Part shown: positions 6,521-63,345 of the stretch, in pieces
How positions within the stretch are numbered: the first letter of the stretch is position 1
Layout of the letters: each line of letters starts with the position of its first letter
From: a virus
IMG/VR virus record: IMGVR_UViG_3300026488_000018
Coordinates: 1-64,000 of that record
Length of the DNA stretch: 64,000 nucleotides
Direction: 5' to 3' (one strand)
Position numbers and translations under genes: made by a program
The notes under the pieces: model-generated
Told to the model about the DNA's origin: nothing
The model's database searches: none
Seen by the model: the letters and a program-made list of their open reading frames with translations, nothing else

Positions 6521-6705
6521 TTTTTATGGACAATTGTTGTGAACTTTACGCGAAGTGGCGGCGGGTTGCAAGAGAATTACATTCGCGTATAAAGATTGTT
6601 GATGGGAAGATCCCGAATGATGCGAAGATTATCATGGCTGAGTATAAAGCATTGTTTATCAAGATGATGTTAAACGGGTGTAAGCCGGAGGGGTGTGATG
6701 GTTGA
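6517..6705 (+). CDS. Small hypothetical protein
   Basis: Overlapping start/stop, SD GGGGTGA. Confidence 0.55.
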   Translation: MIFMDNCCELYAKWRRVARELHSRIKIVDGKIPNDAKIIMAEYKALFIKMMLNGCKPEGCDG

Positions 6706-7751
6706 TGACCAAGATTTACATTCGCCCGGAGGAGAGACCAAAGTATGAGAGCAGGGGTGTTCGCGTTTACGAAGGCCCGAAAGGTGGCTTGTATGTTTTG
6801 AGTGAGGAACTCCCGGATGATTTAAAACGTGAGCTAGGTGAAAGCGCGACGGAAAACATTAGCGAGAAGTACAAGGAGTACGTTGTTCAAGCATTTAATG
6901 ATATTTTAGATAGGTGCGAATCAGTCCACCGCGGCGACGGTATTGTTTTTAAGTTGAAGGACGGCGATAGTATTATCGTCAAGGGTAATACGATTAAAGC
7001 AGGGAAGTGGATAGTTAAGGGTGATAGACTCGACGAACTGGTCGTTTCCTGGGCATTGTTAAGTGAAGCTGTCAGGGTATTGGAGAAGGGTGAAATTGAA
7101 CTTCCCCGGATTGAAGGTGGTTTGTTCGACGTCGGTGGTATTGCTAAGGTTGAAAGTTTAGAGCAGGCGCTGGCTTTGGTGAGCATTTCGCGCGGGTATG
7201 AGTTTATCCGTGATATCAACGAGGATGAGAGTATTGCTGACGCAGTTGAAATGTTTTTCGGCCCGTGGTTGACGCAGAATGTTTTCGAGTTCAGGAGCGA
7301 GAATGTTTCGGTTGATGAGCTGAGGAAGGGTGATTTCTGGCGCGGCGTTGCAAATTTTCTGAGCGTTTATTTTCAGGTGAAGCACGGGCTACGTATTGTT
7401 TTTGAATCGAGCGGGGATATTAAGAGGGCCGCGAATATTGATACTGCGGCGTATTACTGCAAGAGTGAGGTTCATCTCCCGGTTGATATCCCAGGGAAGA
7501 AGGAGTATGGTTATCGCGGTATTGTTTGGCACGAGTTTCAGCATGCGTTATTTGATTTGGTTGAGAGTGGACCGGTTGAGTTCTGGGCGTATCATATGGC
7601 TATGAGTGGGAAGTTAACTGAGTATGCAAAAACAAACGGCAATGAGGCTGCGAGCGAGGCGTGGGCTCTACTTATCGAGGGTAAGGCAGATGACGAGATT
7701 AAGGAGTGGTTTAAACGTTATGTAGAGGAGGTTAAATCATGGATTCAGTAA
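6702..7751 (+). CDS. GPxGG-tagged protein with C-terminal zincin-like metallopeptidase
   Basis: N-terminal VYEGPKGGLYV; AAYY...WHEFQHA and downstream TEYA...EAASEAW. Confidence 0.7.
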   Translation: MMTKIYIRPEERPKYESRGVRVYEGPKGGLYVLSEELPDDLKRELGESATENISEKYKEYVVQAFNDILDRCESVHRGDGIVFKLKDGDSIIVKGNTIKAGKWIVKGDRLDELVVSWALLSEAVRVLEKGEIELPRIEGGLFDVGGIAKVESLEQALALVSISRGYEFIRDINEDESIADAVEMFFGPWLTQNVFEFRSENVSVDELRKGDFWRGVANFLSVYFQVKHGLRIVFESSGDIKRAANIDTAAYYCKSEVHLPVDIPGKKEYGYRGIVWHEFQHALFDLVESGPVEFWAYHMAMSGKLTEYAKTNGNEAASEAWALLIEGKADDEIKEWFKRYVEEVKSWIQ

Positions 7752-7894
7752 AACGGTGCGCGAACTGTATTTTCCGTGTGAGATGCAAACGCGGCATTTA
7801 CTGCGTATTGCATGGTATTTGGGTTGGGGAGAGTGATGTTTGTTCGTCTTTCTGGGGCGCTGATGATTGGTTGAGTTTTGTTAGAGGTGATTGA
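7739..7894 (+). CDS. Small Cys-rich metal-binding protein
   Basis: Manual translation MDSVKRCANCIF...YCVLH...VCSSF; SD GGAGG. Confidence 0.55.
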   Translation: MDSVKRCANCIFRVRCKRGIYCVLHGIWVGESDVCSSFWGADDWLSFVRGD

Positions 7895-7897
7895 CGG

Positions 7898-8218
7898 ATG
7901 GATGAGGGTGACATTGAAGTTGATATTAGCGTGTTACATGCGATGATTTTGGGTTTTATTCTGGGTGCAGTTCAGAGTTATGTGTTAGGTGTTAATTTCT
8001 GGGTTGGCGGATTCATTGGCGCACTGGTGGTTGGCGTTGTTCCGATACTGGGTGTGATTCCTATATTAGGCCCGGTGTTGGCGTATTTTGCGGATAAGTG
8101 GATATTTAACGTCACAGGATTCCCCACCCTGAGCTGGGTATTGTTTTTGAGCATAGGCTTGGCGGTGTTTAATACAATTGTGGTATTGTTTTTGCTGTTG
8201 GCGATATTTGGGGATTAA
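7898..8218 (+). CDS. Hydrophobic membrane protein
   Basis: 3-4 hydrophobic helices by eye. Confidence 0.7.
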   Translation: MDEGDIEVDISVLHAMILGFILGAVQSYVLGVNFWVGGFIGALVVGVVPILGVIPILGPVLAYFADKWIFNVTGFPTLSWVLFLSIGLAVFNTIVVLFLLLAIFGD

Positions 8219-8225
8219 CTGGGTC

Positions 8226-8247
8226 TTTTAAACCACAGTGCGGTATT
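8226..8247 (+). promoter_or_regulatory. Viral promoter consensus TATA-N10-GTATT
   Basis: TTTTAAA-CCACAGTGCG-GTATT upstream of spike gene. Confidence 0.7.
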
Positions 8248-8251
8248 TTTT

Positions 8252-9823
8252 ATGGTGGTTGTAATGAGTGTGGGTTGGTCATATAGTCGTTGGGCGAGTA
8301 AGATTAAAGCTGACTTGGCTGAGGGCAAGTTTAGCAATGATGCTGGACAGACTGAAATTAACGGTTGGCATATTGGTGAGGCACCGATGAATGCTTATGA
8401 CTACATAGTTTATGGTAAGGATACCAATAACGATGGTATAGTTGATATTACCTATGCTAAGAATGGACGTACAGGGAAGATTGAATTTAGTGATACTGAT
8501 GCAAGTAATGTTATACAGAATGTGATTGATGAGGTGTATAATAATGGCGGAGGTAATATTTTTGTTAAGGAAGGAGTTTATAAGATAACGTCGACACTTA
8601 AGTTGCGTTCAGGGGTTACACTTGAGGGTGTAAAGTATAAATCTATTTTGAAGTTATATAATGATGTCGATTTAATGCATATAGTATCCGATAATTCTAG
8701 TGGTTCTGATATGTTTTATGTTTCTGATGTTGTTACCACGTCGCTTAAAAATATTGTGTTTGACGGGAATGATAGACAGTATAATACAGATTTGCTGAAG
8801 TTGAGTGGTGTTTGGTACGGAGCATTTGAGGGATTGGTATTTCAAAATCATGGAGGCATAGCGATACATTTCTATGGCCAGAATTCAAATATTAATAAGT
8901 TCGATAATATAGAGATATATAATTGCGGTAACACGACTAATATTACAACGATAAGTGGTGAACTTATAGGAACACCAATTATATATTTTGAACCAAAAAT
9001 ATCACCATATGAAAAGACAACTGATTTACAAGTAACAAATTTGTATGCTGAACGTAATTACGGAGGAATATTTATAGATGGAGAAGATGTTAGTAAGGCC
9101 GGTGTAACTCATTTACATATTGTTAATGCTCATATAGAAGAAACACCATTAAGTACGCTTTCTGTGCAATATGGTGCATTAGGTGGATATTTATATTATG
9201 CGTATATTAATAACATATCAATATCATGGACAGCTTGGAGTGGAATTAAAATAATAGATGGATATTATGTCAGATTAGAGAATGCAACATTCTACAAAAC
9301 TGGCAGCACAGCGATTTATGCTAATAAACTTGTTCGGTCAGGGTTAGTAAATATAAATTTTGTTAGTTATGGGGCAAATGATAGTAATGCGTATGCAGTA
9401 TACTCAAATGATTTGGGTGGAACATACATACAAGGTTATATTGCAGATTACGAGGGAACAAATAATACAGTATATCTTGGTAGTTACGGTGGAGGAATTA
9501 TAGTAATTGATGGTTATCCAATGACTGAAAGAATTGATTATGGTTCTCTAACAACTTTCAGGAATAGTGTTGTAGTCTCAACTAAGAGTTTTGGTAAAAG
9601 GAATTCGGGTATTGCAACTTTCACTGGTGATGGGAGCACGACGACATTTACAATAGTGCATGGTCTAGTTGATGCACCCAGTAAATACTTTGTGCAACCT
9701 CTAAGTGCTGATGCTAAAGCATACAGCTCGGTTAGTGCAGATACAACAAATATAACGATTACGTTTGACACTGCCCCAGCCAGCGGTGCTGAGCTGAAGT
9801 TTTACTGGTATGCCGAGGTTTGA
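8252..9823 (+). CDS. Beta-helix (pectate-lyase-like) spike/adhesin 1
   Basis: YDYI...[12 protein letters not shown] module, IFVKEGVY beta-helix start, C-terminal GDG..HGL..WYAEV domain. Confidence 0.8.
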
Positions 9824-9867
9824 TGGGATTTTAAACTTCTCTTTTGTATTTTTATTGGTTGGGGCAT

Positions 9868-10137
9868 ATGAATTACAGGATTGTTCTGGAACCTAATATT
9901 AAGGTAGATGAATGGATTGAAGCCGGCGCATATGTAGAGTATCCGAGCGGTGAGATTAAGAAAGTTACGGGTTATTTAAAAGACGGTAGGATTATTGTCT
10001 ACATTGCAGACGAGGATATTCCGAAAGACGGCGCGTATATTTTTCAGGGTTACATATACAACGGTTCAGAGTATAATTACATCTCCAGCCCCGCGGTATT
10101 GTTTTTAAGGAGAGGTGGTTGTTATGATAAAGAGTGA
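9868..10137 (+). CDS. Small Ig-like/BppU-N-like virion protein, paralogue of 13231
   Basis: PSG...D(I/L)..(D/S)G.Y pattern shared with 13231; promoter consensus at 9829-9850. Confidence 0.5.
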   Translation: MNYRIVLEPNIKVDEWIEAGAYVEYPSGEIKKVTGYLKDGRIIVYIADEDIPKDGAYIFQGYIYNGSEYNYISSPAVLFLRRGGCYDKE

Positions 10138-10600
10138 TGCTGGTCTTAAGGGTGAGGTGCGTATTATTGTTAGGCGGAGTGATGGTTCTGTTGAAGAACA
10201 TTCCTTTCGGAATGTCATCACAGATGCGGGAAAAACATGGCTTCTTAAGTTGGGTTTTACGGATGAAACTGCGCGGTTTAGGTATATTGCGATTGGTACT
10301 GGAACAACTCCAGAGAGTTCTTCAGATACGGCGTTAGAGAATGAAATTGTTAGAGTTAATGCAGGTGTTGAATTTGTCACTATTGATACTAATAATGATG
10401 CAGTTCGCTTGCACGGGGTATTTGATTCGAGCGTTGTGAGTGGTTTGCAGAGTATAACTGAGGCGGGCGTATTTAATGACGCGAGTGGGGGCGTATTGCT
10501 GGCGCGGAGAGTATTTCCAGTTATTAACGTTGATTTTGATGCAGGTGATGTTCTTGAGATATTTTGGACGATTCAGTTAAAGTATCTGGGTGAGGAGTGA
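10115..10600 (+). CDS. Tail/baseplate fibre-attachment protein
   Basis: NVITDAGK, IAIGTG, DTALENE, ITEAGVF motifs of tail-fibre N-terminal-like family. Confidence 0.75.
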   Translation: MVVMIKSDAGLKGEVRIIVRRSDGSVEEHSFRNVITDAGKTWLLKLGFTDETARFRYIAIGTGTTPESSSDTALENEIVRVNAGVEFVTIDTNNDAVRLHGVFDSSVVSGLQSITEAGVFNDASGGVLLARRVFPVINVDFDAGDVLEIFWTIQLKYLGEE

Positions 10601-11328: not shown

Positions 11329-11340
11329 GGGGGTATTGTC

Positions 11341-29647: not shown

Positions 29648-29964
29648 TTTTTAAACTTTTCTTTGCAATTTTTTATGGAGGTGTTTCTGTGGAATATTAC
29701 GAGAATGAAATAATAGTTGGCTATTTTAACGTCGGCAAACCACTGATAATCACCCGAGTATTGAATACAGACGGTGAAGTTATAGACGGTTTTTTTAGGT
29801 TTTATTTAGATGGAGACGTTATTTTTGAGATGGATGTTGGCGATGTGGTTTTGATGAGTGATATTTTGAGGGATAACGCAAAAGACTTGTACACAGAGAT
29901 GATTAACGGTGCGGTGTCTCTTTCACAGGATAACGGTTTGAAGGATGATAATATGTATAGGTGA
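29644..29964 (+). CDS. Hypothetical protein (likely GTG ~29689)
   Basis: SD GGAGGTG after TATA at 29648. Confidence 0.55.
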   Translation: MIFKLFFAIFYGGVSVEYYENEIIVGYFNVGKPLIITRVLNTDGEVIDGFFRFYLDGDVIFEMDVGDVVLMSDILRDNAKDLYTEMINGAVSLSQDNGLKDDNMYR

Positions 29965-32150
29965 TAGTGATGAGCCGAAATAAAGAAAGTGCTAGCGCCG
30001 CTGATGCGAATGCAATTTTGGCGAAATATAAAATATCTGTTACCGAGTGTGATGATGTCCCCGCCGAAGAGAGGGTTTATTTAAGTGCTGTTGATTTGGA
30101 GAGATGGGTTAGAAGATATGGCGCAACCGGGTTATGCAGGGGTCCAAGAGGCGGTATTTTTGTTAGGCTTAGTGATTATAAAAAATTGGGTGGGGCGTTA
30201 CAATCTAGTGGGGAAATCGATGAAGATGTTGCACTGAAGAGGTTAGAGAAGAAAAAAGTTAAAGTGGAATTTATCGAAAGTGGTAAATATGATGCAGAAG
30301 TTTATGATATTTTGGGTCAGAATTATATTGTAGCAAAGAATTTTGACATATTTAGTAATGTAATGCAGAAGAAATATTCTGGAAATGGGAAGGAAATAGC
30401 TGCAGCAATGCTGAGAGATATGATTAATAGGTTGTACGGAATGTCTGAAGGCGATATGTTTTTAAGTCAGGATTACAGTAACGTTGATATTAGAAATATA
30501 CACCTGATTGAGAATGGAGTAAAGAGTTTTTACGGGCTGATGATTTTGTCGATGCCGGACGAACTGTTTAATATAATGTGTAAATATGCAAAGACATTAA
30601 AAGATAATGGCAGTGTATCTGCTTCAGTCTTTACTAGAGATGAACAAGAGTATTTGTACAGCATATTTAATGTGAAAAATTGGCAACTAATAGATTTTTC
30701 ATTGAAGAAGTTTTTGTTTACAGGTTATAGTGCGTTTAGTAGATGTGATGATGTGAGTAATATTAGGAGTAATTTGGGTGATGATGTCTGGGATGTTTTG
30801 AGTGGATTGAAAAGTGTTATGGATATAATAAAGGATGATTCCTTTAGTTTGTACAATTTTGGGTTTTTCTTATCGAAGTTTGTAATGGTTAGAAAAAGTA
30901 AAGGGAAAACAACAACAATTTTGAAGACTGATAACATAGGGAATGTTTGGGAAGATTTTTTCAAGTTTAAAAAGAAAGGATTTCTATTGGTTCGTGTTGG
31001 AGATGATTTGAAGAATGCTGTTGATGGTGATAAAACGTTTGTAGAGACTATAGTTAAACCAAGTTTTGTGATATACGGAATTTTGAGAGGCGCAGGCGTT
31101 AGTAGTAAATCAGCATGGGCAGTTTCGAAAGGCGTTAGTGTTATGGCACAGCGAACATACGGCAATTTTAACGGGATTGCACCATATTTGGATTGGTATT
31201 TGCAGAAGTTTGTGACAGGGAACGGACGACCAGTGAGAGTTCCAAATAAGTTTTCTCCAGGGATTGGGAAACTTATAAAGGCGTTGGATAATTTTGTAAC
31301 CCCGATGGATTTGGGTATTTATTTGAACTTTGTGAGAAATTATGTAAAAGAGAGGCACGGTGAACAGGTTGAAGTATATAGGAATTTAAATTTGTTTGAG
31401 GGAAGTATATTTTTAGCAAACAATATCGCCAAAGTAGCCGACAGAGTATTGTTTAAGGATGAAAAGAGAGGGGAGAAGTATTTGAATGCATTGATGAAAG
31501 ACGGTAATGTTATCAAAGGTTATACGTTGTCGACGAGTGTTAATAGAAATGATGTTGAAAAGTTTTTGCAGAGGGGATGGACGAGCGGCGTGTTGGCGAA
31601 GGCAACTATAAAGAGTGACAGCGTTGTTGGCGGGTATTTTGTTGCGGGTGGAGGTTATGTGGATGATTCAGAATTGACAGTTGAAGTTTCACATGATGGA
31701 ATTAAGTTTGAGACAGTTACGATTATACCAAAGAGACCATTGGAAAGGGGCGTATTAAGTCTGGCAGGAAAGGCGGAGAAACCTGAATTGGGCGATTATG
31801 TTAGAGATTTTATGAACTCACTAATATTAGGGATATCACAGGTATCATATGGAAATGCAGATTATGATGAGTATATTGACGCTATATTAGGGGGACTATA
31901 TGTTTATCATAAGGTGGGTGAAAAGCTGTATGGGAATGAATTTATTGAGAAAATAAAGAATGAACATCTGTGGAATAGGGTATTTGAGGCAACTATTATC
32001 GGGATTGGTGGTAACAGAACGATAATTCCAAGCGGGAGCAAAGGTAAATACAGACCATTAAGTGTTTTAAAGTGGAAAGATAAGTTGGTGAGATTTTATA
32101 AGGATATAGGTTTGAACGATGTCGCAGATATAATAGAGAAGGTGGTCTGA
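29961..32150 (+). CDS. GPxGG-tagged large protein with ADP-ribosyltransferase-like domain
   Basis: VPAEERVY...CRGPRGGIFV; R-S-E type motifs VYRNL, TLSTSVN, DDSELTV. Confidence 0.6.
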   Translation: MIVMSRNKESASAADANAILAKYKISVTECDDVPAEERVYLSAVDLERWVRRYGATGLCRGPRGGIFVRLSDYKKLGGALQSSGEIDEDVALKRLEKKKVKVEFIESGKYDAEVYDILGQNYIVAKNFDIFSNVMQKKYSGNGKEIAAAMLRDMINRLYGMSEGDMFLSQDYSNVDIRNIHLIENGVKSFYGLMILSMPDELFNIMCKYAKTLKDNGSVSASVFTRDEQEYLYSIFNVKNWQLIDFSLKKFLFTGYSAFSRCDDVSNIRSNLGDDVWDVLSGLKSVMDIIKDDSFSLYNFGFFLSKFVMVRKSKGKTTTILKTDNIGNVWEDFFKFKKKGFLLVRVGDDLKNAVDGDKTFVETIVKPSFVIYGILRGAGVSSKSAWAVSKGVSVMAQRTYGNFNGIAPYLDWYLQKFVTGNGRPVRVPNKFSPGIGKLIKALDNFVTPMDLGIYLNFVRNYVKERHGEQVEVYRNLNLFEGSIFLANNIAKVADRVLFKDEKRGEKYLNALMKDGNVIKGYTLSTSVNRNDVEKFLQRGWTSGVLAKATIKSDSVVGGYFVAGGGYVDDSELTVEVSHDGIKFETVTIIPKRPLERGVLSLAGKAEKPELGDYVRDFMNSLILGISQVSYGNADYDEYIDAILGGLYVYHKVGEKLYGNEFIEKIKNEHLWNRVFEATIIGIGGNRTIIPSGSKGKYRPLSVLKWKDKLVRFYKDIGLNDVADIIEKVV

Positions 32151-32151: not shown

Positions 32152-32409
32152 ATGTATAGCGACACGTATTTATACCCAATAGGTGATGATGATTGGGTTT
32201 TTAGTAAAATTACGAACGCGTTGGATATTAGTATTGTTGATAGAGAGGAGTTTAGAGTGTTTGAAGTTGATGAGTTAATTTTAACGGAGTTGATATATTT
32301 GAATCCGTTAATACCAGTGTTTACAGATGGGCGCGGGTATTATGTCGTTGCTAAAAAGGGCAGTGAAGAAGAAAAAATGTTGGAGGTGTTGATTAATGGG
32401 GTTGTTTGA
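32152..32409 (+). CDS. Small hypothetical protein
   Basis: Between the ART-like gene and portal. Confidence 0.6.
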   Translation: MYSDTYLYPIGDDDWVFSKITNALDISIVDREEFRVFEVDELILTELIYLNPLIPVFTDGRGYYVVAKKGSEEEKMLEVLINGVV

Positions 32410-34471
32410 TTTCTTTTTGAATAGGCGTGAGATTAAGAAAAACGGTGATGAACCGGAGGTGGAAATAGAATTTGCGAAGGATGGAACATTTAATGCATTA
32501 ATGTATGCAGGAACAGATAATTTGTTTGATATAAAGGGTCCACTCGATTTTAGGGGGATAAATAAGAGTGCTGTTCAGGCGGGCGTAAGCGGGTTAGCGT
32601 TAGTCCCAATTTTACCGTTTAGTTACGAGTATGTAGAAAGCCTTTATTACAATAGCGATATACTGAGAACGGTTATAACGGTATTGTTGAATGAGACGTT
32701 CGGGAATGGGTTGAGTGTTAAACCGAAGTTTACGAAGAAGTGTTTGGTATGCGGTGCAACGTATGATGAGGATGTCGATGTGTGTGAGGCTTGTGGGTCA
32801 CATAGATTGGTGGGCCCCAATGAGAATGAACGGAAAATTTTAGAGAAGTTCATAGAAAAGGCGAATATTAATAATCAACCCTTGATTGATGTGCTGAGGG
32901 ATTTAGACCACAATTTGAATGTATTTGATAACGCGTATTTGATTGTTAGAAAGAAATACGAGTATAATGACAATGGTGATTTGATAGCAGAAAAACCACT
33001 TGAGATATACAGCGGTGACCCGAAGCGTATTTATTTGGTTATGAGTAGTGATGGTCGTCCGGGTCTTACGCGCGATGGTAAGAATATGGTTTTTGTCTGT
33101 CCTGAGCACAGAGATGAGCCAGTATTGGTTCCAGTAGAGAAGTTATTGGAAGACCCTGATTATATTCCAAGGTGTCCGAAGTGCGGGCGGAAGATGCATA
33201 AGGCTGTAGCAGTTTATGATGTAGGAGGAAGCAAGTATTTTTTTATTGATGGTGAAATTCTTCATTTGAAGAAGTTTACGCCCGGTATTGGATACGGGTA
33301 CCCGCCGATAATTACACTGTTGAAGAAATTGCTTATATTGATTAAGCAGGATTCGTTTATTTTAATGGCTTATCATATGCAGAGACCGCCGCGCGGGCTC
33401 CTTGTGTTGAGAGCAGATAGGAATGCTGTTGCTAAGGCATTTATGACTGCGCGCAGTGAGGCTTATAAGAACCCATGGAATATTGTGCCGTTGGTTATTT
33501 CAGGCCCGGAGAAGGTTGTTGGGAAACGTGTAGTTGAGTGGCTTGATTTGAGTTATAAACCAGATGAAGTGACATTTACCGCGTATCGCAATGAGGTAAG
33601 ACGCGTTGTTGCAAGTATGTGGCAAATTAGCCCAATTTTCCAGGGTGAGGTTAATACTGGTATTTCTAATGAGGGGTTACAAGTTACGATAACAAATAGA
33701 GCGATTATGCGTGAACAGGCTTTGATAAATAATGTGTTGAAGTGGCTGGTTAAGCAGTTGAAGGTTAATGATTGGGTTATAGAGTTAAATCCCAATGAGC
33801 CAATGGATATTTCACGCAAGCTCGACAGAATACGCCGCCGTATTGATATAGTAAAGGAGCTGGAAGAGCTCGGGTATGAAGTTGAGTTAATCCCAACGGG
33901 TGTTGACGGTATTGACTTTAAGTTCGATGGGAAGATTGAACCAAGTAAGAGGTTGAAGAGAGCGATTGAATTGTATGCAAAGAGGAAGGGGTATAGGATT
34001 AATGTTGATGATTTTATTGAAGTAATTGATGTTCTGCCGAAGGTAGGTTTAACGTTTGAGTCGTTTAAGAGGTTAATGTTGCTTGCTGAGTTGGTTGGCG
34101 GGGTTGAGAACATTATTAGAAATGTTGAGCAGGTGTTGAATATTCCACCGCTTGAGCAGATTTTGTATAGGATAAAGTATCCAGACGCTGCGAGTAATTA
34201 CGAGCAGGGTGGTGTACAGATGCTGCAAGATAACCAACAAGAAGTATTATCCCAGGAGCAGGGTATTGAAGAGAACAATGAAGGGGGTTCGTTAACGTTT
34301 GAGGATTGGCTAAATGAATTATTAAATGAAAGTGACGAAGTAGAAGGACAGCCAGCAGAGAGCGGTGTTAAAATGTTTAATTCAGAGGAGGGTGAGAAGT
34401 TTGAGGGGCAACCTGAGATGAATAGAAAGGAGATGCCCGGTATGGAGCATCTATACGAGAGAAGAGAGTGA
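32396..34471 (+). CDS. Portal protein with Zn-ribbon insertions
   Basis: LNVFDNAYL, EILH, GYGYPPI, PPRGLL motifs; CLVC..CEAC and CPEH..CPKC inserts; upstream of protease. Confidence 0.85.
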   Translation: MGLFDFFLNRREIKKNGDEPEVEIEFAKDGTFNALMYAGTDNLFDIKGPLDFRGINKSAVQAGVSGLALVPILPFSYEYVESLYYNSDILRTVITVLLNETFGNGLSVKPKFTKKCLVCGATYDEDVDVCEACGSHRLVGPNENERKILEKFIEKANINNQPLIDVLRDLDHNLNVFDNAYLIVRKKYEYNDNGDLIAEKPLEIYSGDPKRIYLVMSSDGRPGLTRDGKNMVFVCPEHRDEPVLVPVEKLLEDPDYIPRCPKCGRKMHKAVAVYDVGGSKYFFIDGEILHLKKFTPGIGYGYPPIITLLKKLLILIKQDSFILMAYHMQRPPRGLLVLRADRNAVAKAFMTARSEAYKNPWNIVPLVISGPEKVVGKRVVEWLDLSYKPDEVTFTAYRNEVRRVVASMWQISPIFQGEVNTGISNEGLQVTITNRAIMREQALINNVLKWLVKQLKVNDWVIELNPNEPMDISRKLDRIRRRIDIVKELEELGYEVELIPTGVDGIDFKFDGKIEPSKRLKRAIELYAKRKGYRINVDDFIEVIDVLPKVGLTFESFKRLMLLAELVGGVENIIRNVEQVLNIPPLEQILYRIKYPDAASNYEQGGVQMLQDNQQEVLSQEQGIEENNEGGSLTFEDWLNELLNESDEVEGQPAESGVKMFNSEEGEKFEGQPEMNRKEMPGMEHLYERRE

Positions 34472-34514: not shown

Positions 34515-37151
34515 ATGGAAGAACTGAAAAAAATTGATATTCTGGGGAGTAGTAACGATAGATTGATTGCGGGTTGGGCGAGCGTTGAGGTTGTAGATAG
34601 GCAGGGACAGATTGTTCCAATTGATGAACTAAATAAGGCGCTTTTGAGGTATAGTATTAGAGGCGCACCGCTTAATTATGGGCATAAAAACCACCAGGTT
34701 GGGCGTGTTATTAATTGGTATATAATGAAACACCCGAAGACGGGTAAGTGGGGTGTTTACATTATAGGCTACATATTTAGCGGTGAGAAGATATATGATG
34801 TTGTTTGGGAGGCGATTAAAGACGGAACTCTAACAGGTTTCAGCATTGCCGGTATTGCAAATAGGAAGGAGTATGATATTGTTGATGGGAGGAGTGTTGA
34901 GGTGTTGAGAGATATCACAATTACAGAGATAAGTGTGGTTGAGAAGCCAGCGAACCCCGAAGCTCTTATTGAGGAGATTAATAAGTTTGCTAAGAGCGGA
35001 GATGATTCGGTTATCCGTATAATGGGTGCAAGTTTTACTAAGGGTATTATTGATGATGCGGTTAATGTTGCCAAGGAGAACGGTGTTAACGAAGAAATTG
35101 TCGCTGATATAGTCGAAGAGGCACTGAGAAAGTTCATCTGCGGTATTGCCAAGCAGTATGACAGCAAGGTGATGGCAGTATTTGATAATGAGAAGGATGC
35201 GTTTGCGTATGCCATTGAGAAGGGAGGATTTGTGATTCCGAGTTATGATGGAAAGTTTTTAGTTGTAAGAGATAAAGCACATTTTGATGTTAAGGAAGAC
35301 GAGAAGATGTATATAGAAGAGTTGGATATGGGCGTAGAGAAGGTTAAAGTTGATGTTGATATGAAAGATGAAGAATTTGAGAAGAGTGAGGGCCCGGTTA
35401 CAGTTAGTTCAGAGGGAATGATGAACCCTACTTATGGAAGCAAGTGGTTAAAGAATAAGGACGAGAAGTCGAATGTGATAGGCGAAGTGATTATGAATCT
35501 TATCAGGATTAAGAAAGAGTTTAAGGATAATGAGTCGGTGTATTATTTGATTGATGATATGATTTTTAAGCTGCACGATTTGGTTGGTGGTGATGAGATG
35601 GTTAAAAGTATTGAAAGTGATGATGATTTGAGGAGAATTTTGGTAGGTCTCCTCGATGAGGCTAAAAAATTGAGGGGATTTGTGTATAAACATACAGAAA
35701 GTCTGGCATATAAAGGTATGGCTGATGATATTGTTAAGACGTTTGAACATCTGATTGAGGAACTTGATAGCGGGCAGATTGAGGTTGCTAAGGGTGAACT
35801 TACAAAGGATGAACTGTTGAGAATATTAAGAGGAATTCTTGATGAAGCAAAGAAGATTGCTGGTTTTATTAGAGACCACACTGAGAGCGGGGCATACAGG
35901 GGAATGGCTGAAGACGTTGTAAATGGTTTAAGGGCGCTCATTGGCGACGTTGAACGCAGTATTATTCAGGTTAGGAAGGATAGTGGTGTAGCTGATGATG
36001 ATATGAAGATTAAGGAAGAAGCAGAGAAGCTTAAGACAAAAATCGAGGAGATAAACGAGGTGTTTAGTAAGCAGGATGAGGGCAGGAATAGGATGATGAT
36101 GATGTACGGAAGTATTATGCAGAGCATTGTCGATGAATTGGAAGCTATAATCTTTTATGCTGACGTCGCGGCAATGTTTGATATGTTTGGGTATGACGAA
36201 ATTGCGGCGAATGTGAGGAGTGTTATTAGTGAGGAGCTAGAGCATGTTAGGGAGTTTACGGCGATGCTCGAGAAACTTGCTATTGGCGATAAACCAATTA
36301 AGGAAATTGAAACAAATGAGGAAGTTGCAGTTCCCACCCCCGACCAGGGTATTGTTGAAGTGAGCAAGAAGGAAAGAGGTGAGCACAAGAAGTGTATGGA
36401 GCGGTATTATAATTTTGAAGAAGGCCATTTCAAGGGTAGAGAGGGAACGGGTGAAAGGTTCGATAATTGTGTAAAAGCCCAGATGCATTGTAATGGGAAG
36501 AGTAGAGAAGAGGCTGAAAAGATATGTGGTATGATTGCTCGCAGGAAAGGTTATGCTGGCGGAAAGAAGGTTAAGAAGGGTAAGATTGATGAAATAAAAG
36601 CGAGACTTGAAGAAGTTAGAAAGGCGGCGAAGAAGAACTGTCGGAAGCGGTATTATGATGAAGATAGAGGACATTTCCGCGAGATGACTTGTCCAGATGA
36701 CCCAAATGAGAAAAGTAGGTTCTGTGGTTGTGTCAGGTATCAGATGAACTGCAATGGTAAGTCTTTGGAGGAAGCTAAGGAGATATGCGGATATATAAGG
36801 TTCCATGTTAAGAAGAGTGTTGAAACTGAACTTAATATGCTTCTTGTGAAGCTGAGGGTTGCAAAGGCAAGGAAGACTGGGCACCGTAAGGGTAAGACTG
36901 AAGCACAGCGTCGAAGGGAGAGAAAACAGCAAGGTCCTGGTCGTCCTAAAGACCCTTGTCGACAGCGTTTTGTTGATAAGAATGGTTTTTACAGAAAGAT
37001 GACTGACCCAAAGAACCCAAGTAAACCCGCGAGCGAGTTTTGGGGGTGTGTGAGATATGCAATGGAATGCAAGAAAATGTCATACGAAGAAGCGAAGAGT
37101 TGGTGTGGTAAGGCGAAGTACGATGCTGTTGAGGGCGGCGGTGAGGCGTGA
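34515..37151 (+). CDS. HK97-type prohead protease with long multi-domain C-terminal extension
   Basis: IAGWASVEVVDRQG, YGH, GFSIAG, EISVVEKPANPEA; followed by helical repeats, ferritin-like domain and Cys repeats. Confidence 0.88.
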   Translation: MEELKKIDILGSSNDRLIAGWASVEVVDRQGQIVPIDELNKALLRYSIRGAPLNYGHKNHQVGRVINWYIMKHPKTGKWGVYIIGYIFSGEKIYDVVWEAIKDGTLTGFSIAGIANRKEYDIVDGRSVEVLRDITITEISVVEKPANPEALIEEINKFAKSGDDSVIRIMGASFTKGIIDDAVNVAKENGVNEEIVADIVEEALRKFICGIAKQYDSKVMAVFDNEKDAFAYAIEKGGFVIPSYDGKFLVVRDKAHFDVKEDEKMYIEELDMGVEKVKVDVDMKDEEFEKSEGPVTVSSEGMMNPTYGSKWLKNKDEKSNVIGEVIMNLIRIKKEFKDNESVYYLIDDMIFKLHDLVGGDEMVKSIESDDDLRRILVGLLDEAKKLRGFVYKHTESLAYKGMADDIVKTFEHLIEELDSGQIEVAKGELTKDELLRILRGILDEAKKIAGFIRDHTESGAYRGMAEDVVNGLRALIGDVERSIIQVRKDSGVADDDMKIKEEAEKLKTKIEEINEVFSKQDEGRNRMMMMYGSIMQSIVDELEAIIFYADVAAMFDMFGYDEIAANVRSVISEELEHVREFTAMLEKLAIGDKPIKEIETNEEVAVPTPDQGIVEVSKKERGEHKKCMERYYNFEEGHFKGREGTGERFDNCVKAQMHCNGKSREEAEKICGMIARRKGYAGGKKVKKGKIDEIKARLEEVRKAAKKNCRKRYYDEDRGHFREMTCPDDPNEKSRFCGCVRYQMNCNGKSLEEAKEICGYIRFHVKKSVETELNMLLVKLRVAKARKTGHRKGKTEAQRRRERKQQGPGRPKDPCRQRFVDKNGFYRKMTDPKNPSKPASEFWGCVRYAMECKKMSYEEAKSWCGKAKYDAVEGGGEA
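35612..35980 (+). repeat. Two tandem ~60-aa helical repeats in the protease extension
   Basis: DDLRRILVGLLDEAKKLRGFVYKHTESLAYKGMADD vs DELLRILRGILDEAKKIAGFIRDHTESGAYRGMAED. Confidence 0.85.
36387..37125 (+). repeat. Three Cys-rich ~55-aa repeats in the protease extension
   Basis: C..R(Y/F)...G.(F/Y)...F..CV...M.C...S.EEA...CG repeated three times. Confidence 0.85.
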
Positions 37152-42310: not shown

Positions 42311-43486
42311 ATGGTGTGGAGTGTTATTTCTGAAAAGGAGATAGCTGCGTTTTATGCTGGTGGAGATAGTATATTTAACGGGGCGTTCGATATTGCTAAA
42401 GCCGATGGTACCGTTAATTCTGAGCTTATTCCTAATTATCGTAACATAGTTTATGGTCCGCGCATTTGGAGAGCTCTTAACGTTGAGAGTAATGCGTTTG
42501 GTATTCTTCCTAAGACGACTTGGCCGAGCTCTGGTTGGCGTGTGAAGACTGATTTTGCTTACCAGAGCAGTGAGATTGCTATTGGTGAGACTGACAGCTT
42601 TGGTACTCCGAAGTATCCGCCGATACAGGTTGTTAGGGCGCAGCCAAAGATAGCGCTTGTTACGTTCGAGATTAGCGATGTCATGGAGGCGCTTGCTGAG
42701 GTTTCGCAGGATGACGTTGTTGGTACCGCGGAGCAGCTTCGTGTCGATATGGGTACTGAGTTTGTTAAGATGGTTAATAGGGAGCTTCTTAGGAAGGTTA
42801 TTGGTAGCGCCACTGATGGAAGTGATTCTGAGGGTTCTGAGCCTGCAACGAGGTTTACTTCGCTTGATAGGGCTGTCGCGAGCCATGCGGAGGCACAGGC
42901 TTTTGGTTCCCCGGAGAGTGCGACTGTTTACGGTATTGACAGAGCGAGCGCTCCTTGGATGGATTCAGTTGTTAAGTTCGACACGAATGGTCTCGAACTT
43001 ACGGATGAGCTGATAAGGCAGACTCTCGCTGAGGTTAAGAAGAATGGTGCTAACACTAATGTTATACTCACCGGTTACGATACTTATGCGAAGCTCCTCG
43101 GTATTTACATGAACTTTGTTAGGTATCTACCGGCTATGACTGAGACGCAGGTTCAGTTCGGTGTTAACGGTATTCAGACTGCGAAGGGTATTGACGCGGG
43201 TGTGAAAGTTGCTGCCCTTTATGGAATTCCAGTGATACAGTCTGTTGATGTTCCAAGTGATGGTAACGGTTATCTGCAGAGGATGTATATGCTTGACCTT
43301 ACTGACCCCGAGGGATATGGAATACCGCGCGGAAGTTTCTCAATACTTAGGCCGCCGAGCTATCTTGAGAGCAACAACTTCGTCCTGATGCAGAAGGTTG
43401 TAAGGCGTGGAGCGTACTATATGGCGGGTGAGCTGACTATAAGGCTGCCGCGCATGAACGCGAAGATAAGGTCAATCCTCGAGTGA
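42311..43486 (+). CDS. Major capsid protein (HK97 fold)
   Basis: YG..W..LN.E.NAFGILPK..W..SGWRV N-terminal motif, TSLDR, ILTGYDT, LYGIPVI; strong codon bias. Confidence 0.85.
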   Translation: MVWSVISEKEIAAFYAGGDSIFNGAFDIAKADGTVNSELIPNYRNIVYGPRIWRALNVESNAFGILPKTTWPSSGWRVKTDFAYQSSEIAIGETDSFGTPKYPPIQVVRAQPKIALVTFEISDVMEALAEVSQDDVVGTAEQLRVDMGTEFVKMVNRELLRKVIGSATDGSDSEGSEPATRFTSLDRAVASHAEAQAFGSPESATVYGIDRASAPWMDSVVKFDTNGLELTDELIRQTLAEVKKNGANTNVILTGYDTYAKLLGIYMNFVRYLPAMTETQVQFGVNGIQTAKGIDAGVKVAALYGIPVIQSVDVPSDGNGYLQRMYMLDLTDPEGYGIPRGSFSILRPPSYLESNNFVLMQKVVRRGAYYMAGELTIRLPRMNAKIRSILE

Positions 43487-55848: not shown

Positions 55849-55854
55849 GTTGTT

Positions 55855-59763: not shown

Positions 59764-59775
59764 TTAGGCTAAAGC

Positions 59776-59798
59776 TTTTTAAACTTTTCTTTTGTATT
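59776..59798 (+). promoter_or_regulatory. Viral promoter consensus upstream of the phosphatase/kinase operon
   Basis: TTTTTAAA-N10-GTATT. Confidence 0.7.
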
Positions 59799-59814
59799 AT
59801 TTACGGTGGTGTAA

Positions 59815-59988
59815 ATGTATGTAGTTGAGAAAGACGGTAAGGTGGTAGGCGCGTTTAACGCTTACAATGTGTTTTTCATTGATGAAGTGCTTAAGATGAA
59901 TTTTATCGAGATTGCTAATAGGTACGGTATTGATGAGGTTATAATGTGGCTCAGAAAACTGGGGTATACTGTTAAGGAGGTTGATTGA
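59815..59988 (+). CDS. Small hypothetical protein (57 aa)
   Basis: Manual translation MYVVEKDGKVVGAF...LRKLGYTVKEVD. Confidence 0.6.
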   Translation: MYVVEKDGKVVGAFNAYNVFFIDEVLKMNFIEIANRYGIDEVIMWLRKLGYTVKEVD

Positions 59989-60630
59989 ATGGGGAGGTTT
60001 TTGTTTGTTAGTGATTTACATGTGAATGACGAAAATTATGAGCGGACTTTGGAAGGACTGAATAACATAGTATCGAAATATGATGTCGATTTTATAGTTA
60101 GCGGGGGCGATAACGGTGAGGTGGATAATAATTTTCTGGATAGTCTGAATGCTTGCTTTTATTCGATATATGGTAACCATGATACGATTGAGTGGGTGAA
60201 AGATTTTAACGGACATTGGCTACATGATGGTATGCATGTGATTGGTGATTTTTCACTGTTGGCATGGAATGGGATTTTTGGGTTTAGTGAAAAATACCCC
60301 AAGTGGTACCATCGTAGCTTAGATGATTTTATTCGTTTTGGGTATAGCTGGGCTAACGCAAGACCAGATGTGTTTGTAAGTCATGAGATACCATACTATA
60401 ACAGGTTTGGCAAGCAAGTACAGGAATATTTGAGTGTTATGAATTACGGTGTAAAGATGATAAAGCCGAGAGTATGGCTTAATGGCCACATCCACAGAGG
60501 CGTTATAATAGACAGAGACACATTCCAGGGTATTGTTTATGTGAATGTCGAGAGTAAGGGAAAGAAAGTTAGCGGTGTTATCGTTGAAAAAGATGGTGAT
60601 GAAATTAATATAACAATTGTAGAGGGATGA
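59989..60630 (+). CDS. Calcineurin-like metallophosphoesterase
   Basis: SDLH, GGDN, GNHD, SHE.P, GHIH motifs. Confidence 0.9.
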   Translation: MGRFLFVSDLHVNDENYERTLEGLNNIVSKYDVDFIVSGGDNGEVDNNFLDSLNACFYSIYGNHDTIEWVKDFNGHWLHDGMHVIGDFSLLAWNGIFGFSEKYPKWYHRSLDDFIRFGYSWANARPDVFVSHEIPYYNRFGKQVQEYLSVMNYGVKMIKPRVWLNGHIHRGVIIDRDTFQGIVYVNVESKGKKVSGVIVEKDGDEINITIVEG

Positions 60631-60633
60631 CGG

Positions 60634-60831
60634 ATGACTGTGGTAGTGTATCGTTGGTATTATGGTGAGTATAAAGAGTTGTTTAGGATTACAGGCAATA
60701 AAGTGTCGAATGAGTATGGAGAGATGTTTTTGAGAGAATTAGGGATACCAATGAATGAGGATGCGGTATTTAAGAGTCTTAAATCGAATGGGGTTTATTT
60801 AGTTGAAAGGGTGGGTGATGAGAGTGATTGA
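60634..60831 (+). CDS. Small protein, paralogue of 60818
   Basis: LF.(I/V).G...SN...RE.G...E..(V/I).K.L..N..YL pattern. Confidence 0.6.
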   Translation: MTVVVYRWYYGEYKELFRITGNKVSNEYGEMFLRELGIPMNEDAVFKSLKSNGVYLVERVGDESD

Positions 60832-61000
60832 GGTTGTACGTATTATCGGTGATAAAGTTATTCCTCTTTTTACTGTTGATGGTGATGAGTTTAGTAATAT
60901 AGAGCTTGCGCGCGAGTATGGGTTTGACGGCATGGATGAAGAGAAAATCAAGAAGCTTCTCTGGGATAATCCATATCTTAATTATAGGGAGGTGGAGTGA
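60818..61000 (+). CDS. Small protein, paralogue of 60634
   Basis: Same pattern; SD GGGTGGGTG. Confidence 0.6.
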   Translation: MRVIEVVRIIGDKVIPLFTVDGDEFSNIELAREYGFDGMDEEKIKKLLWDNPYLNYREVE

Positions 61001-63345
61001 TGCAGGGTGCAGAAAAATTCCAAGGGAAGTCTTATTCAGAAGTTCCACCCGAGTATAGGTATTATGTTGATGAAGAAGAGGAGAGTAAATTTAGGGCAAT
61101 GGGTGTTCCTATATATGAGGGTCCACATGGTGGGAAGTTTATAGATAGACGCGATTTGATTAGACACGGTGAGAGAAATCCAATTGAAGTGTCAAGTACG
61201 AATATTATTAAGTTGAAACAGTATTACGACGCTTTATTGGAACGAGGCAGTATTGATTCGGATGAGATGAAGAATGTGATAGCGGCGTTGAATTGGGTAA
61301 GATTTAAGGGAATGGCCCGCAAGGTGGGTGATTTGAGTGTTATTGATGATAAAATTGCTAAGGTCGAGAAATTAGATATAAATTCGTTAAATAGGGATAT
61401 TTTGTTTAAAGTTCAGTTTAAGGACGGAACATACGCGTATATGAAGAAGCTTTTTCCTGATGAAATGATAGAGGTTAGGGTTGCCGGTATTACAGGACAT
61501 ATTGTTAGTAATATGTTGGAGAAGATTGTTGAAAGTGATGTTTTGAAGAAGCTATTACCGAAAGGGCGTTTGGTTAATTACAACGGCGATTGGTATTTTA
61601 TGACAGATGAAGTGTATGGTGTTTTGGGTGTTAACGCGAGGGATAAGCTGAAGGATATTGATTTCAATAGTGACGACATGATAGATTTGATGGCGGGTTT
61701 GATTGTAATTGGGTTAGGTGATTTACATTTTGCTAATGTATTCTATGAGCCAAACGCAAAGATAATAATTCCATTTGATTTTGATTTCGCAGGAAGTAAC
61801 ATTAAAATTACAAATTTTGGACCACTTGATTTTATTGCGAGGGTTGATAAGGATAAGTTTAAGGATTTGGATTTCAGGAAACTTGCCGATAAAGTTGTTG
61901 AAAAATTTGAAAAATATAACGGTGAACTACGTCAGTATTTGTCAGATGAAGAAGATGTATTGAAGACGTATATTAATGCAGATGAGCGGGACGTTGATTT
62001 TGCGATTGAGAGTTTTTATGAGTGGTTTAATAGACTTGGAAAAATTGTTCAGATGTATAAGGATGGAATGATAAATGGTTTTGGGATGTTAGTTAATGTT
62101 GGTTCGGCGAGACCAAAAGTTAATATTAGGGCGTTTATCGGCGATGATTTATTTAATGAGTTGATAAATGATTTTTCGAAAGCCGCAAAGGTACCGGCTG
62201 AGTATAGGTTGTATATTAATAACTGGCAGGCCCAACGATTTAGGCGCAAGGGTATTAAAGTTTACAGAGGCCCGCGTGGTGGGCTGTATGTTGATATCAG
62301 AGAGTTAAAGAATAGAGGTGTTAATACAGACGAAGTTAAGGTGGTTGAGGAGTTTAAACCGGAGTTACTGGAGGATTCTAAGAATTTGAATGCTATTATT
62401 GCCAGGGTTGCAGAAGAACCAAAATTACGTGTGGCCGTTGTTAACGAATTGAGGAAGGGTATTGATTACATGATAGAGAAACTTATTGATTACAAGTTAG
62501 GGCAGAATAGGGAGGAGTATTTGTTACATTATCGCAGAGCAGTGAATGCAGCATTTGTGCTAAATGCGTTGAATGGGAAAGCAATGGCGAATGATATGAA
62601 CAACGATAATTACAAGGTGGTATCGTTTAGTGATGTTGGTGCGCAACCGGGTGTTATAAATGTGACATCGATGTTTATAGGAGAATTTCTGGATGGGTCA
62701 CATATTTTTGCAAAGGAGTTGACGGATGATGCCGAGTGGGTTGTAAATAATTATGTTGCCCCAGCGTTGATTAAGGTATTGGTTGGTCGCGAGTATTCGG
62801 ACTTTATTCCAACACCGCGTATTATAGTGAAGGATGGTAGAGTGTTTGTTGGGACGAGTGAGGTGTATGGAGTTACTGGCATGGATTTAATGGGTATTCA
62901 AGATATTGAGTTAAAGAACGTGGATAGGTTCATGGATTTTCTCGCCGCTCACTATGTTGTTGGTTTGGATGATAGCCACGAGTCAAATTACTTCATAGAT
63001 CCAGAGAACGGAGTATTTGTACAGTTTGATGTTGATTATGCGTTTATGAGGGGTGGAACGGAGCTTCATATAGGTACTATGGTGGAAAAATTAGCAGAGT
63101 GGTACGGTTTTGATGCAACGGAGGTAAAGAGAAGAGGGATAGAGAAGTTGTTACAAAAAGAAAAGGAGATAATGTTCACTATAAGAGCGTTACGCGCGTC
63201 GTTAGATGTTTATGATATGCCCGAGGATAAGAAGGAGATAATGAAGAAGGGTATTGATAGAGCAGGCGCGTTTATGTTTGAACTTATCAGGAAAGCAAAG
63301 AAAGACCCAGACGAAGCTATACGGTATTTGGACAGCAAAATTTGA
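60997..63345 (+). CDS. Tandem GPxGG-tag + HipA/PI3K-like kinase protein (two modules)
   Basis: Module 1: AYMKK, GDLHFANV, PFDFDFA; module 2: IFAKE, DDSHESNY, QFDVDYA; each preceded by VP.EYR.Y...GP.GG. Confidence 0.8.
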   Translation: MMQGAEKFQGKSYSEVPPEYRYYVDEEEESKFRAMGVPIYEGPHGGKFIDRRDLIRHGERNPIEVSSTNIIKLKQYYDALLERGSIDSDEMKNVIAALNWVRFKGMARKVGDLSVIDDKIAKVEKLDINSLNRDILFKVQFKDGTYAYMKKLFPDEMIEVRVAGITGHIVSNMLEKIVESDVLKKLLPKGRLVNYNGDWYFMTDEVYGVLGVNARDKLKDIDFNSDDMIDLMAGLIVIGLGDLHFANVFYEPNAKIIIPFDFDFAGSNIKITNFGPLDFIARVDKDKFKDLDFRKLADKVVEKFEKYNGELRQYLSDEEDVLKTYINADERDVDFAIESFYEWFNRLGKIVQMYKDGMINGFGMLVNVGSARPKVNIRAFIGDDLFNELINDFSKAAKVPAEYRLYINNWQAQRFRRKGIKVYRGPRGGLYVDIRELKNRGVNTDEVKVVEEFKPELLEDSKNLNAIIARVAEEPKLRVAVVNELRKGIDYMIEKLIDYKLGQNREEYLLHYRRAVNAAFVLNALNGKAMANDMNNDNYKVVSFSDVGAQPGVINVTSMFIGEFLDGSHIFAKELTDDAEWVVNNYVAPALIKVLVGREYSDFIPTPRIIVKDGRVFVGTSEVYGVTGMDLMGIQDIELKNVDRFMDFLAAHYVVGLDDSHESNYFIDPENGVFVQFDVDYAFMRGGTELHIGTMVEKLAEWYGFDATEVKRRGIEKLLQKEKEIMFTIRALRASLDVYDMPEDKKEIMKKGIDRAGAFMFELIRKAKKDPDEAIRYLDSKI

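Follow-up and report, generated by a model that had tools for sequence, protein, structure and literature searches.

The capsid targeting sequence of phage T4, carried by the internal proteins and by Alt, is a short peptide that is cut off by the prohead protease. The study of Jamet et al. 2017 (PMC5576092) is said to belong with the work on effectors fused to MuF or portal proteins and on polyvalent proteins. Some effectors are attached to a MuF or portal protein or have their genes among those of the head; the passages devoted to them in PMC5512222 and PMC9503650 (Iyer et al. 2022) favour packaging in the head and injection. Polyvalent proteins are few in archaea according to PMC5512222 (Iyer et al. 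2017), and PMC8651126 mentions an ADP-ribosyltransferase (ART) in HVTV-1 and HCTV-5. Here we describe a module of ~ 40 residues that occurs four times in the window, i.e. the 64,000-nucleotide stretch formed by bases 1–64000 of the 89,720-bp IMG/VR virus record IMGVR_UViG_3300026488_000018 (CheckV completeness 76%). The copies stand in three otherwise unrelated proteins, P0001, P0002 and P0003, which combine them with enzyme-like regions. We consider it likely that the module is a real domain marking head-associated effector cassettes, and the tagged enzymes are probably associated with the head. Head-packaged effectors on MuF or portal proteins are known already, as is the adaptor motif of Paramecium bursaria chlorella virus (PBCV) that the module resembles. 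The literature searched mentions neither the archaeal-virus form of the module, nor the rule of one module per cassette, nor its use on free-standing enzymes that have no MuF or portal part.

A six-frame scan located GP[KRH]GG in real open reading frames (ORFs) at four sites, 6774, 30141, 61120 and 62269, all on the + strand. The chance expectation, calculated from the composition of the 27,802 residues in + strand ORFs of ≥ 80 residues, is 0.05 sites. At 61314 there is a fifth site, GPQGG, in a frame riddled with stops. The three genes and their four module copies are as follows, each copy with its score when left out of the training set and its score with a 30-sequence profile.

6702–7751, + strand: P0001, 349 residues, with an N-terminal module and a C-terminal region bearing an HExxH motif (possibly zincin-like)
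6705–6821, + strand: module copy 1, residues 2–40 of P0001 (28.2 bits left out, 55.0 bits with the 30-sequence profile)
29961–32150, + strand: P0002, 729 residues, with a 31-residue leader, a module, a region of ~ 390 residues and a putative DRAT-like ART domain
30054–30188, + strand: module copy 2, residues 32–76 of P0002 (13.9 bits left out, 45.7 bits with the 30-sequence profile)
60997–63345, + strand: P0003, 782 residues, with two tandem cassettes, each formed by a module and a HipA/PI3K-like kinase-like domain
61039–61167, + strand: module copy 3, residues 15–57 of P0003 (31.7 bits left out, 63.5 bits with the 30-sequence profile)
62188–62316, + strand: module copy 4, residues 398–440 of P0003 (53.6 bits left out, 73.0 bits with the 30-sequence profile)

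In the leave-one-out analysis, hidden Markov models (HMMs) trained on three copies were run on the entire record, translated in all six frames. Each omitted copy was the best non-training match, with 13.9–53.6 bits versus ≤ 5.4 bits for everything else. This test is somewhat favourable, flattered because the motif had served to choose the copies. The 30-sequence profile recovered the same four copies from the record and no fifth; the next best match scored 5.3 bits. Copy 1 is a short N-terminal form that begins at strand 1 without the 'VPxEYR' segment, as also observed in P0011, P0022, P0029 and P0032. Copy 2 is the most divergent and the weakest, with a two-residue insertion and the variant 'LCRGPRGGIFV', and copy 4 is internal, at the border of the two cassettes of P0003. 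By these comparisons, the four copies are homologous and not a chance motif. The sequence-only reading of this DNA had placed the same motif at these four positions, and both the scan and the leave-one-out models confirm it with coordinates that agree.

The four-copy profile was searched against 1,835,955,588 representative proteins with a threshold of E ≤ 1e-3. The 46 matches, which reach E-values of 1e-9 to 1e-42, consist of the three window proteins, 29 others with a full-length module (31–69 bits per copy), and 14 with a short core or a partial module. Nine of the 46 contain the short core only, eight of them in tandem repeats typical of the PBCV adaptor; the remaining one, an acidic protein of haloarchaeal style, has six copies. 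P0038, P0042, P0044 and P0046 are long proteins with partial matches; P0044 contains GNAT acetyltransferase domains according to Pfam. P0012 (356 residues, six tandem repeats of ~ 58 residues) fits just the N-terminal half of the module profile ('VPPEDRWYISRD').

As judged by profile and sequence comparisons, the module precedes at least nine unrelated families, three of them unnamed. The most frequent partner is a DRAT-like ART, found in ten of the 29 full-module proteins (10 of the 43 non-self matches) in addition to P0002. A kinase-like domain is present in two of the 29: P0005, an ortholog of P0003 with 35% identity over the full length, and P0010, which is a single cassette. P0011 is an ortholog of P0001 (41% identity), and a second HExxH family, unrelated to that of P0001, occurs in P0028, P0031 and P0049. 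P0022 and P0029 have one unnamed family in common. Further unnamed domains are found in P0041, P0015 and P0030, the last of which contains 'VYRGETN' and looks ART-like by eye, yet was not retrieved by the ART profile. Seven of the 29 proteins are short or partial. In P0027, counted here among the ARTs, the order is MuF, a short module, RelA_SpoT (56 bits), a module and an ART. P0043 (1163 residues) has its module at residues 28–70, followed by Topoisom_I (topoisomerase IB), PolyA_pol (poly(A)/CCA polymerase) and HD domains, which widens the module partners to enzymes acting on nucleic acids. Two modules each are found in P0003, P0005, P0006, P0007 and P0027, with one module per enzyme. The HMM built from the four copies, a check that accompanied the sequence-only reading, thus returned many architectures and not one fixed arrangement.

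The protein clusters of the matches are tiny, with 1–6 members, and only that of P0027 has named members, which are hypothetical proteins from metagenome-assembled genomes of Bathyarchaeia and Aenigmatarchaeota. The related-locus search revealed no relatives of P0003 in viral contigs, and no homologue of the second P0003 cassette was found at E ≤ 1e-3 among 8000 scored candidates. A homologue search with the module of P0013 returned three proteins from eight candidates, none of them new.

The enzyme-like regions of the three window proteins carry the following motifs.

7530–7544, + strand: HEFQH (HExxH) of P0001, conserved in P0011 as HEFQH
31326–31790, + strand: putative ART domain of P0002, aligned with 13 ART segments of module-bearing proteins
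31374–31388, + strand: R474 of the P0002 ART triad, within VYRNL
31527–31541, + strand: S524-T-S526 of the P0002 ART triad
31665–31685, + strand: D569-S-E571 of the P0002 ART triad
61711–61791, + strand: catalytic-loop-like motifs GLGDLHFAN and FDFDFA of the first kinase-like domain of P0003
62962–63042, + strand: catalytic-loop-like motifs GLDDSHESN and FDVDYA of the second kinase-like domain of P0003

We accept the C-terminal domain of P0002 as a probable ART of the R-S-E type, DRAT-like, on the strength of a chain of profile matches and of its intact R-S-E triad. P0002 itself has no Pfam match at E ≤ 1 and no PHROG match, and a six-frame DRAT search was likewise blank. A jackhmmer search that started from the DRAT-positive L017 protein (40.5 bits) reached residues 512–589 of P0002 at 43.9 bits via ten intermediate proteins, and blastp of P0002 against the ARTs of P0018 and P0007 gave E ≈ 3e-8. 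R474, S524-T-S526 and E571 fall in the R, S and E columns of the family, with the first Glu of the ExE motif replaced by Asp569. The middle part of P0002, residues 79–470, has no relative among the profile matches.

The halves of P0003 are homologous to one another. Both contain D-x-H-x-x-N followed by D-x-D, with the D and the N invariant in three aligned cassettes. The Atlas neighbours of P0003 belong to HipA_C, HipA_2 and PI3_PI4_kinase clusters, with TM scores of 0.44–0.48. Other neighbours are Phage_Mu_F fusion proteins, which align with the kinase-like domain through their C-terminal part, and bacterial HipA_C proteins with an HTH_17/excisionase N-terminus that align from the module onwards (TM 0.45). 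The seven matches of a cassette profile to the PDB were all PIKK catalytic loops (SMG1, Tel1), with non-significant E-values of 0.4–1.1. No Pfam family matched the kinase-like region, and the AlphaFold2 model of a module-plus-kinase cassette (three sequences) had a predicted local distance difference test (pLDDT) score of 49, too poor for use. The cassettes of P0003 are best described as likely, but not proven, kinases. P0001 has no Pfam or PHROG match. In the Atlas, the model of its residues 175–349 resembles ATLF and Peptidase_M90 clusters (TM 0.43/0.66 and 0.41/0.59), which makes a zincin-like fold a lead. The kinase and zincin calls are drawn from motifs and from weak fold or feature matches; the ART call is stronger. 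The earlier claim that each copy lies N-terminal to an enzyme-like region agrees with the positions of HEFQH, of the R474-S524-E571 triad and of the two D-x-H-x-x-N plus D-x-D pairs. As to the enzyme identities that it named, the ART is upheld by the profile chain and the triad, and the kinases and the peptidase stay at the level of motifs and weak fold similarity.

The link to the virus head comes from gene fusions in relatives and from gene neighbourhoods, for which these genes of the record are needed.

32396–34471, + strand: portal, 691 residues (phrog_18178, E 8.4e-39)
34515–37151: prohead protease, 878 residues, with an S78/XkdF protease domain at the N-terminus
42311–43486: HK97-type major head protein (phrog_24667, E 1.9e-27)
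59989–60630: metallophosphoesterase, directly upstream of P0003 (phrog_1649, E 1.1e-9)
63738–65153 of the record (63738–64000 inside the window), + strand: TerL (phrog_2, E 6.8e-54)

Fusions of the type portal-module-enzyme are represented by P0023 and P0028, in which the first ~ 460 residues share 43% identity with the window portal (blastp E 1e-120 and 2.5e-129, respectively); Phage_portal matches the two proteins with 25.6 and 30.7 bits. P0019 and P0027 are fusions of MuF, module and one or more enzymes; their MuF scores of 26.0 and 19.8 bits are below the cut-off of 29.6, and the MuF domain of P0019 resembles annotated gpF-like or head-morphogenesis proteins of GenBank viruses. The window portal has no module of its own; close homologues carry one. 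In the window, one 85-residue ORF separates P0002 from the portal, which is followed by the prohead protease, and one 87-residue ORF separates P0003 from TerL. The sequence-only reading had likewise put one gene just before the portal and one shortly before TerL.

Further loci were searched with the degenerate DNA pattern [VIM][YH]xGP[KRHQNS]GGx[YF][VIM]D. The resulting counts are lower bounds because many variants, among them copies 1 and 2 of the window, escape the pattern. Viral contigs yielded at least seven loci, six of them with the module (five in the full form and one in the haloarchaeal short form), and metagenomes at least 22, of which 14 have the full module. Across 185,579 species genomes, the strict DNA pattern retrieved no full-length module and six loci, all bacterial, with the core only at 8–17 bits. 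The sequence-only reading had named a predominance of cellular proteins as the outcome that would speak against it; the matches instead sit in viral head-gene neighbourhoods.

Genes with the module share a locus with portal or MuF in nine contigs (the window record, L013, L039, L055, G001, G002, L012, G004 and L043), and in four of these the module is inside the portal ORF itself. L013, L039 and L055 have the order portal-module-HExxH. In L013 and L039, the next gene encodes an N-domain, a module and either an ART or an HExxH protein, and is followed by a MuF gene that begins with the same N-domain. L055 has its MuF gene directly after the portal ORF. L013 and L055 run on to the protease and the major head protein; L039 stops within the MuF gene. 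The N-terminal domain of ~ 100 residues that is common to the MuF gene product, P0013 and P0031 (L013 4568–7203; L039 5157–7705) may be the actual portal-docking part in these viruses. G001 (L029 7404–12250) is a complete 46.8-kb genome with terminal repeats. It encodes an 856-residue ORF composed of portal, MuF, module and a Cys-rich tail of ~ 45 residues, so that the module closes the portal-MuF protein with no enzyme behind it. This ORF overlaps the next gene (module-X-module-ART) by 40 nucleotides. The portal of G002 and that of L012 are preceded by genes for a module protein and an exonuclease and by a small ORF; a MuF gene follows the portal in G002, and its putative counterpart in L012 is a 198-residue ORF. 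G004, an 86-kb haloarchaeal-type virus with 64% GC (L017 8794–12209 / L030), has portal, MuF, module-ART-ART and X-module-RelA_SpoT. The module-ART-ART protein, which has a short module, matches Pfam DRAT with 40.5 bits versus the cut-off of 25, and RelA_SpoT matches the next protein with 43.5 bits. L043 has portal, MuF, one ORF, module-ART and then another module gene. BLAST recognised no head gene in L051, L053, L054, L044, L049 and L058, contigs that are mostly short, and the portal regions of HVTV-1 and the Methanomassiliicoccales virus, 15 kb each, contain no module.

The in-frame portal-module-enzyme and MuF-module-enzyme fusions of close relatives connect the module, together with its enzymes, to the inside of the capsid. 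The sequence-only reading had proposed a packaged effector system in which the module is the loading or ejection signal. This reading is supported in part: the link to the capsid interior stands through these fusions, but the role as the signal itself is conjectural. A pure loading signal would be redundant in a protein that is joined to portal or MuF anyway, and several proteins have one module for each enzyme.

Compared with the described systems, the module-bearing proteins share exchangeable toxin-like enzymes (ART, RelA/SpoT, peptidases and kinases) with MuF- or portal-fused effectors and with polyvalent proteins, and their relatives include such fusions. An effector in one polypeptide with MuF or portal is found in the relatives P0019, P0023, P0027, P0028 and the G001 ORF. 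P0001, P0002 and P0003 differ in having no MuF or portal part (no Pfam match). A head or packaging neighbourhood, typical of the fused effectors, surrounds P0002 (portal, protease) and P0003 (TerL), P0001 being the exception. With respect to SPP1 gp7 and Mu gpF, members of the portal-associated MuF family, the module lies directly behind MuF in P0019, P0027 and G001; however, it has no similarity to PF04233, and P0002 has no MuF match. The module resembles the T4 capsid targeting sequence as an N-terminal element common to otherwise unrelated proteins, which in T4 are located in the head and injected. Unlike the T4 peptide, it is a predicted folded domain of 40 residues, found at internal positions and after portal or MuF as well. 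The cleavable signal peptide of the T4 type was accordingly rejected as the closest model.

The AlphaFold2 model of copy 4 alone (43 residues, 30-module alignment) had a mean pLDDT of 93, and the module is thus predicted to be a small, independently folding domain of ~ 40 residues. The predicted elements are a strand (7–10), a helix (12–20), a strand (25–27), the GPRGG turn, a strand (33–36) and a short helix (37–42). Y9, G28 and G32 are invariant in the 30 aligned modules, and R7, G22, G31 and D36 are nearly so. The linkers after the module are long, charged and variable. The net charge is positive in 25 of the 30 modules, with a mean of +3.2. Among the BFVD entries weakly similar to the model are three proteins of 'uncultured archaeal virus' (466–555 residues, 29–42% identity over 31–38 columns, E 0.7–1.1), one of them named XkdF-like protease; these may be module copies of marine archaeal viruses. 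A complex prediction of the portal monomer (4-row alignment) with the module (30 rows) gave no answer (score 0.00 against a mark of 0.32, in a run without controls), and we count it neither for nor against binding.

PF08789 (PBCV_basic_adap) is the sole Pfam family that touches the module, a connection that the sequence-only reading had overlooked and that suggests DNA tethering as a rival explanation. On P0003, PF08789 scored 12.1 bits versus a gathering cut-off of 20.4; the whole-protein sums of the relatives P0006 and P0005 were 21.4 and 20.0 bits. In the reverse direction, seven of the ten scanned short-repeat matches of the module profile pass PF08789 with 23–89 bits. They include P0033 (Pkinase plus adaptors) and P0020 (adaptors plus ADPrib_exo_Tox, the latter with a weak score). 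An hhalign comparison of the 30-module alignment with 23 PF08789 units gave a probability of 96.6% over 18 columns (20–37 onto 5–22), in a test that is partly circular as the 23 units were picked by motif. In our reading, the module is related to the PF08789 domain and extended at the N-terminus, but is not a member by the Pfam criterion. Both are virus-borne and fused to kinases and ARTs, and the C-terminal part of the module contains the 'G-x-x-V-Y-x-G-P-R-G-G-x-Y-V' hairpin of PF08789. In contrast to the PBCV unit, the archaeal-virus module has an extra N-terminal strand and helix ('VPxEYRxYI...LPKG'), ends with 'D-x-R-E-L' and is without the fourth strand ('G-K-K-x-Y'). Moreover, a single module stands on the N-terminal side of each enzyme; the PBCV units form tandem arrays that are often C-terminal.

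The virion kinases of PBCV-1 are the single experimental context for the basic adaptor domain. In the section of PMC3281028 that concerns them, A278L and A282L, both annotated as a kinase with a basic adaptor, belong to a set of six basic proteins associated with the virion DNA, with an estimated ~ 397 and ~ 533 copies per virion, and recombinant A278L has the size of the particles on ejected PBCV-1 DNA. Text searches for 'basic adaptor domain' and 'GPRGG' found, among the matches listed, no paper describing the module, although the domain lists in the supplements to PMC5512222 and PMC9503650 may give it a different name. In the searched text of PMC5512222, the terms 'PBCV', 'basic adaptor' and 'GPRGG' have 0 occurrences, as does 'adaptor' in that of PMC9503650.

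The explanation that we favour, with a modest degree of confidence when taken entire, i.e. including delivery in the virion and the tethering role, is the following. The module would be the archaeal-virus form of a domain that has the 'VYxGPRGGxYV' hairpin core in common with the PBCV basic adaptor. It would head exchangeable cassettes (ADP-ribosyltransferase, HipA/PI3K-like kinase, HExxH proteins, RelA/SpoT and others) that form part of the gene set for head morphogenesis (portal/MuF) in tailed viruses of archaea. P0001, P0002 and P0003 would be built into the capsid and enter the host together with the DNA, the route proposed for MuF- or portal-fused effectors and for polyvalent phage proteins. 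The module itself would tether its cassette, with either the portal vertex or the packaged DNA as the anchor. A mere loading peptide is disfavoured: the module is predicted to be folded, retained behind portal or MuF, present once per enzyme and enzyme-free in G001, which argues against such a peptide, and these four features fit a binding module that tethers the cassette to the portal vertex or the packaged DNA.

Several observations weigh against this explanation. The module is kept even where it is fused to portal or MuF, so that a loading signal would be redundant there, and the presence of one module per enzyme, with two modules in each of five proteins, suggests a role per cassette and not per polypeptide. 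P0003 lies ~ 27 kb from the portal, beside the metallophosphoesterase and ahead of TerL, and P0001 sits among beta-helix, DUF2341 and tail-fibre/tail-spike-like genes, not head genes. No MuF domain was detected in the record, which is 76% complete. In six-frame translation, PF08789 reached 15.4, 14.6 and 14.6 bits on three copies, all below 20.4, and gave no match on the fourth, and the common core of ~ 18 residues is partly motif-selected. Five of the 30 modules are net acidic, copy 3 (−3) among them, which weakens a simple DNA-binding view. Searches with the module model gave no match at E ≤ 1e-3 in the PDB (Foldseek), a best Z of 3.9 with none of 48,161 chains at Z ≥ 5 in VIA wide, and a best E of 0.24 in the BFVD viral library (Foldseek). 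Against 50,697 GenBank phage records, tblastn found no match, and so no cultured relative, for P0002, P0003, P0016 and the L017 ART protein; for P0019, the MuF part alone was matched.

A related explanation, which we hold to be possible yet doubtful, is that the module binds double-stranded DNA and thereby co-packages and co-ejects its enzyme or aims it at the host DNA. Such a mode of action has been suggested for the PBCV-1 kinases with the basic adaptor domain. It overlaps the favoured explanation, the partner being DNA and not the portal. The core in common with PF08789, the DNA-associated virion proteins A278L and A282L (as given in the same section of PMC3281028) and the predominantly positive charge (25 of 30 modules, mean +3.2) would all suit a DNA tether, although the DNA binding of the PBCV-1 proteins may come from other basic parts and not from the adaptor, and the acidic modules, including copy 3, do not fit. 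Small DNA-binding domains (BldC, Xis, excisionase and MerR-type helix-turn-helix) predominate among the weak structural neighbours of the module, and the HTH_17/excisionase N-terminus of the bacterial HipA_C proteins in the Atlas points the same way, but with Z of 3.3–3.9 and Foldseek E of 0.2–1.6 none of the structural neighbours is significant. Finally, the G001 module, with no enzyme behind it, suits a binding module over a cargo label.

We regard as improbable that the module is a common targeting or regulatory domain acting in the host only, which would direct the various enzymes to a single host component or control them, with the genes expressed after entry and the proximity to head genes incidental. 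The one module for each enzyme cassette, the position of P0001 and P0003 outside the portal-to-major-head-protein block, and the long, charged and variable linkers between module and enzymes are compatible with such a role. Nevertheless, the in-frame fusions behind portal (four contigs) and behind MuF put the module physically in the capsid there, and the clustering with portal or MuF recurs in far-apart lineages, from the haloarchaeal-type virus with 64% GC to contigs with 26–44% GC. A chance or low-complexity Gly/Arg-rich motif without common origin or function is very hard to believe: few positions are invariant and short GPRGG-like strings do arise by chance in bacterial genomes (the six loci mentioned above), but the conservation spans the full 40 residues, and the E-values in 1.84 billion proteins, the confident fold prediction and the four sites versus 0.05 expected all oppose it.

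Almost nothing is known of host takeover by archaeal tailed viruses, and the module offers a sequence by which candidates for injected effectors can be listed in uncultured viruses of archaea. Should the relation to the PBCV adaptor prove right, cargo packaging would be connected across two very different virus realms. A bolder proposal, which we put forward as rather unlikely, is that of one ancient, portable 'virion cargo adaptor' of archaeal tailed viruses, some phages and algal giant viruses (the PBCV basic adaptor), which would bind the packaged genome or the portal vertex, load any fused enzyme into the capsid and let it out with the DNA into the host. If true, it would amount to a general delivery system of exchangeable cassettes across viruses of all three domains.

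The closest named relatives of the window portal are those of HVTV-1 and HCTV-1/5 (haloarchaeal tailed viruses) and of the Methanomassiliicoccales virus, with 22–24% identity. An archaeal host is well supported by sequence similarity because these nearest named relatives are archaeal tailed viruses. The sequence-only reading had suggested a hyperthermophilic archaeon; its archaeal part is borne out by the portal relatives and by the archaeal genomes in the P0027 cluster. Also encoded in the record are a DNA polymerase of family B and a DEAD helicase that has an archaeal domain 4.

Some minor features of the head genes and of the window can be added. The portal has a zinc-ribbon insert (residues 112–135) in which C116, C119, C130 and C133 are invariant across four aligned portals, as are C235, C260 and C263 of a second Cys cluster; its acidic C-terminal tail of ~ 170 residues is absent from the module-fused portals. 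The prohead protease shows weak Ferritin/Rubrerythrin matches at residues 536–636. Every long ORF of the window is on the + strand, and the GC skew is +0.31 to +0.51 in each 2-kb bin, an unusually strong excess of G (purine) on the coding strand.

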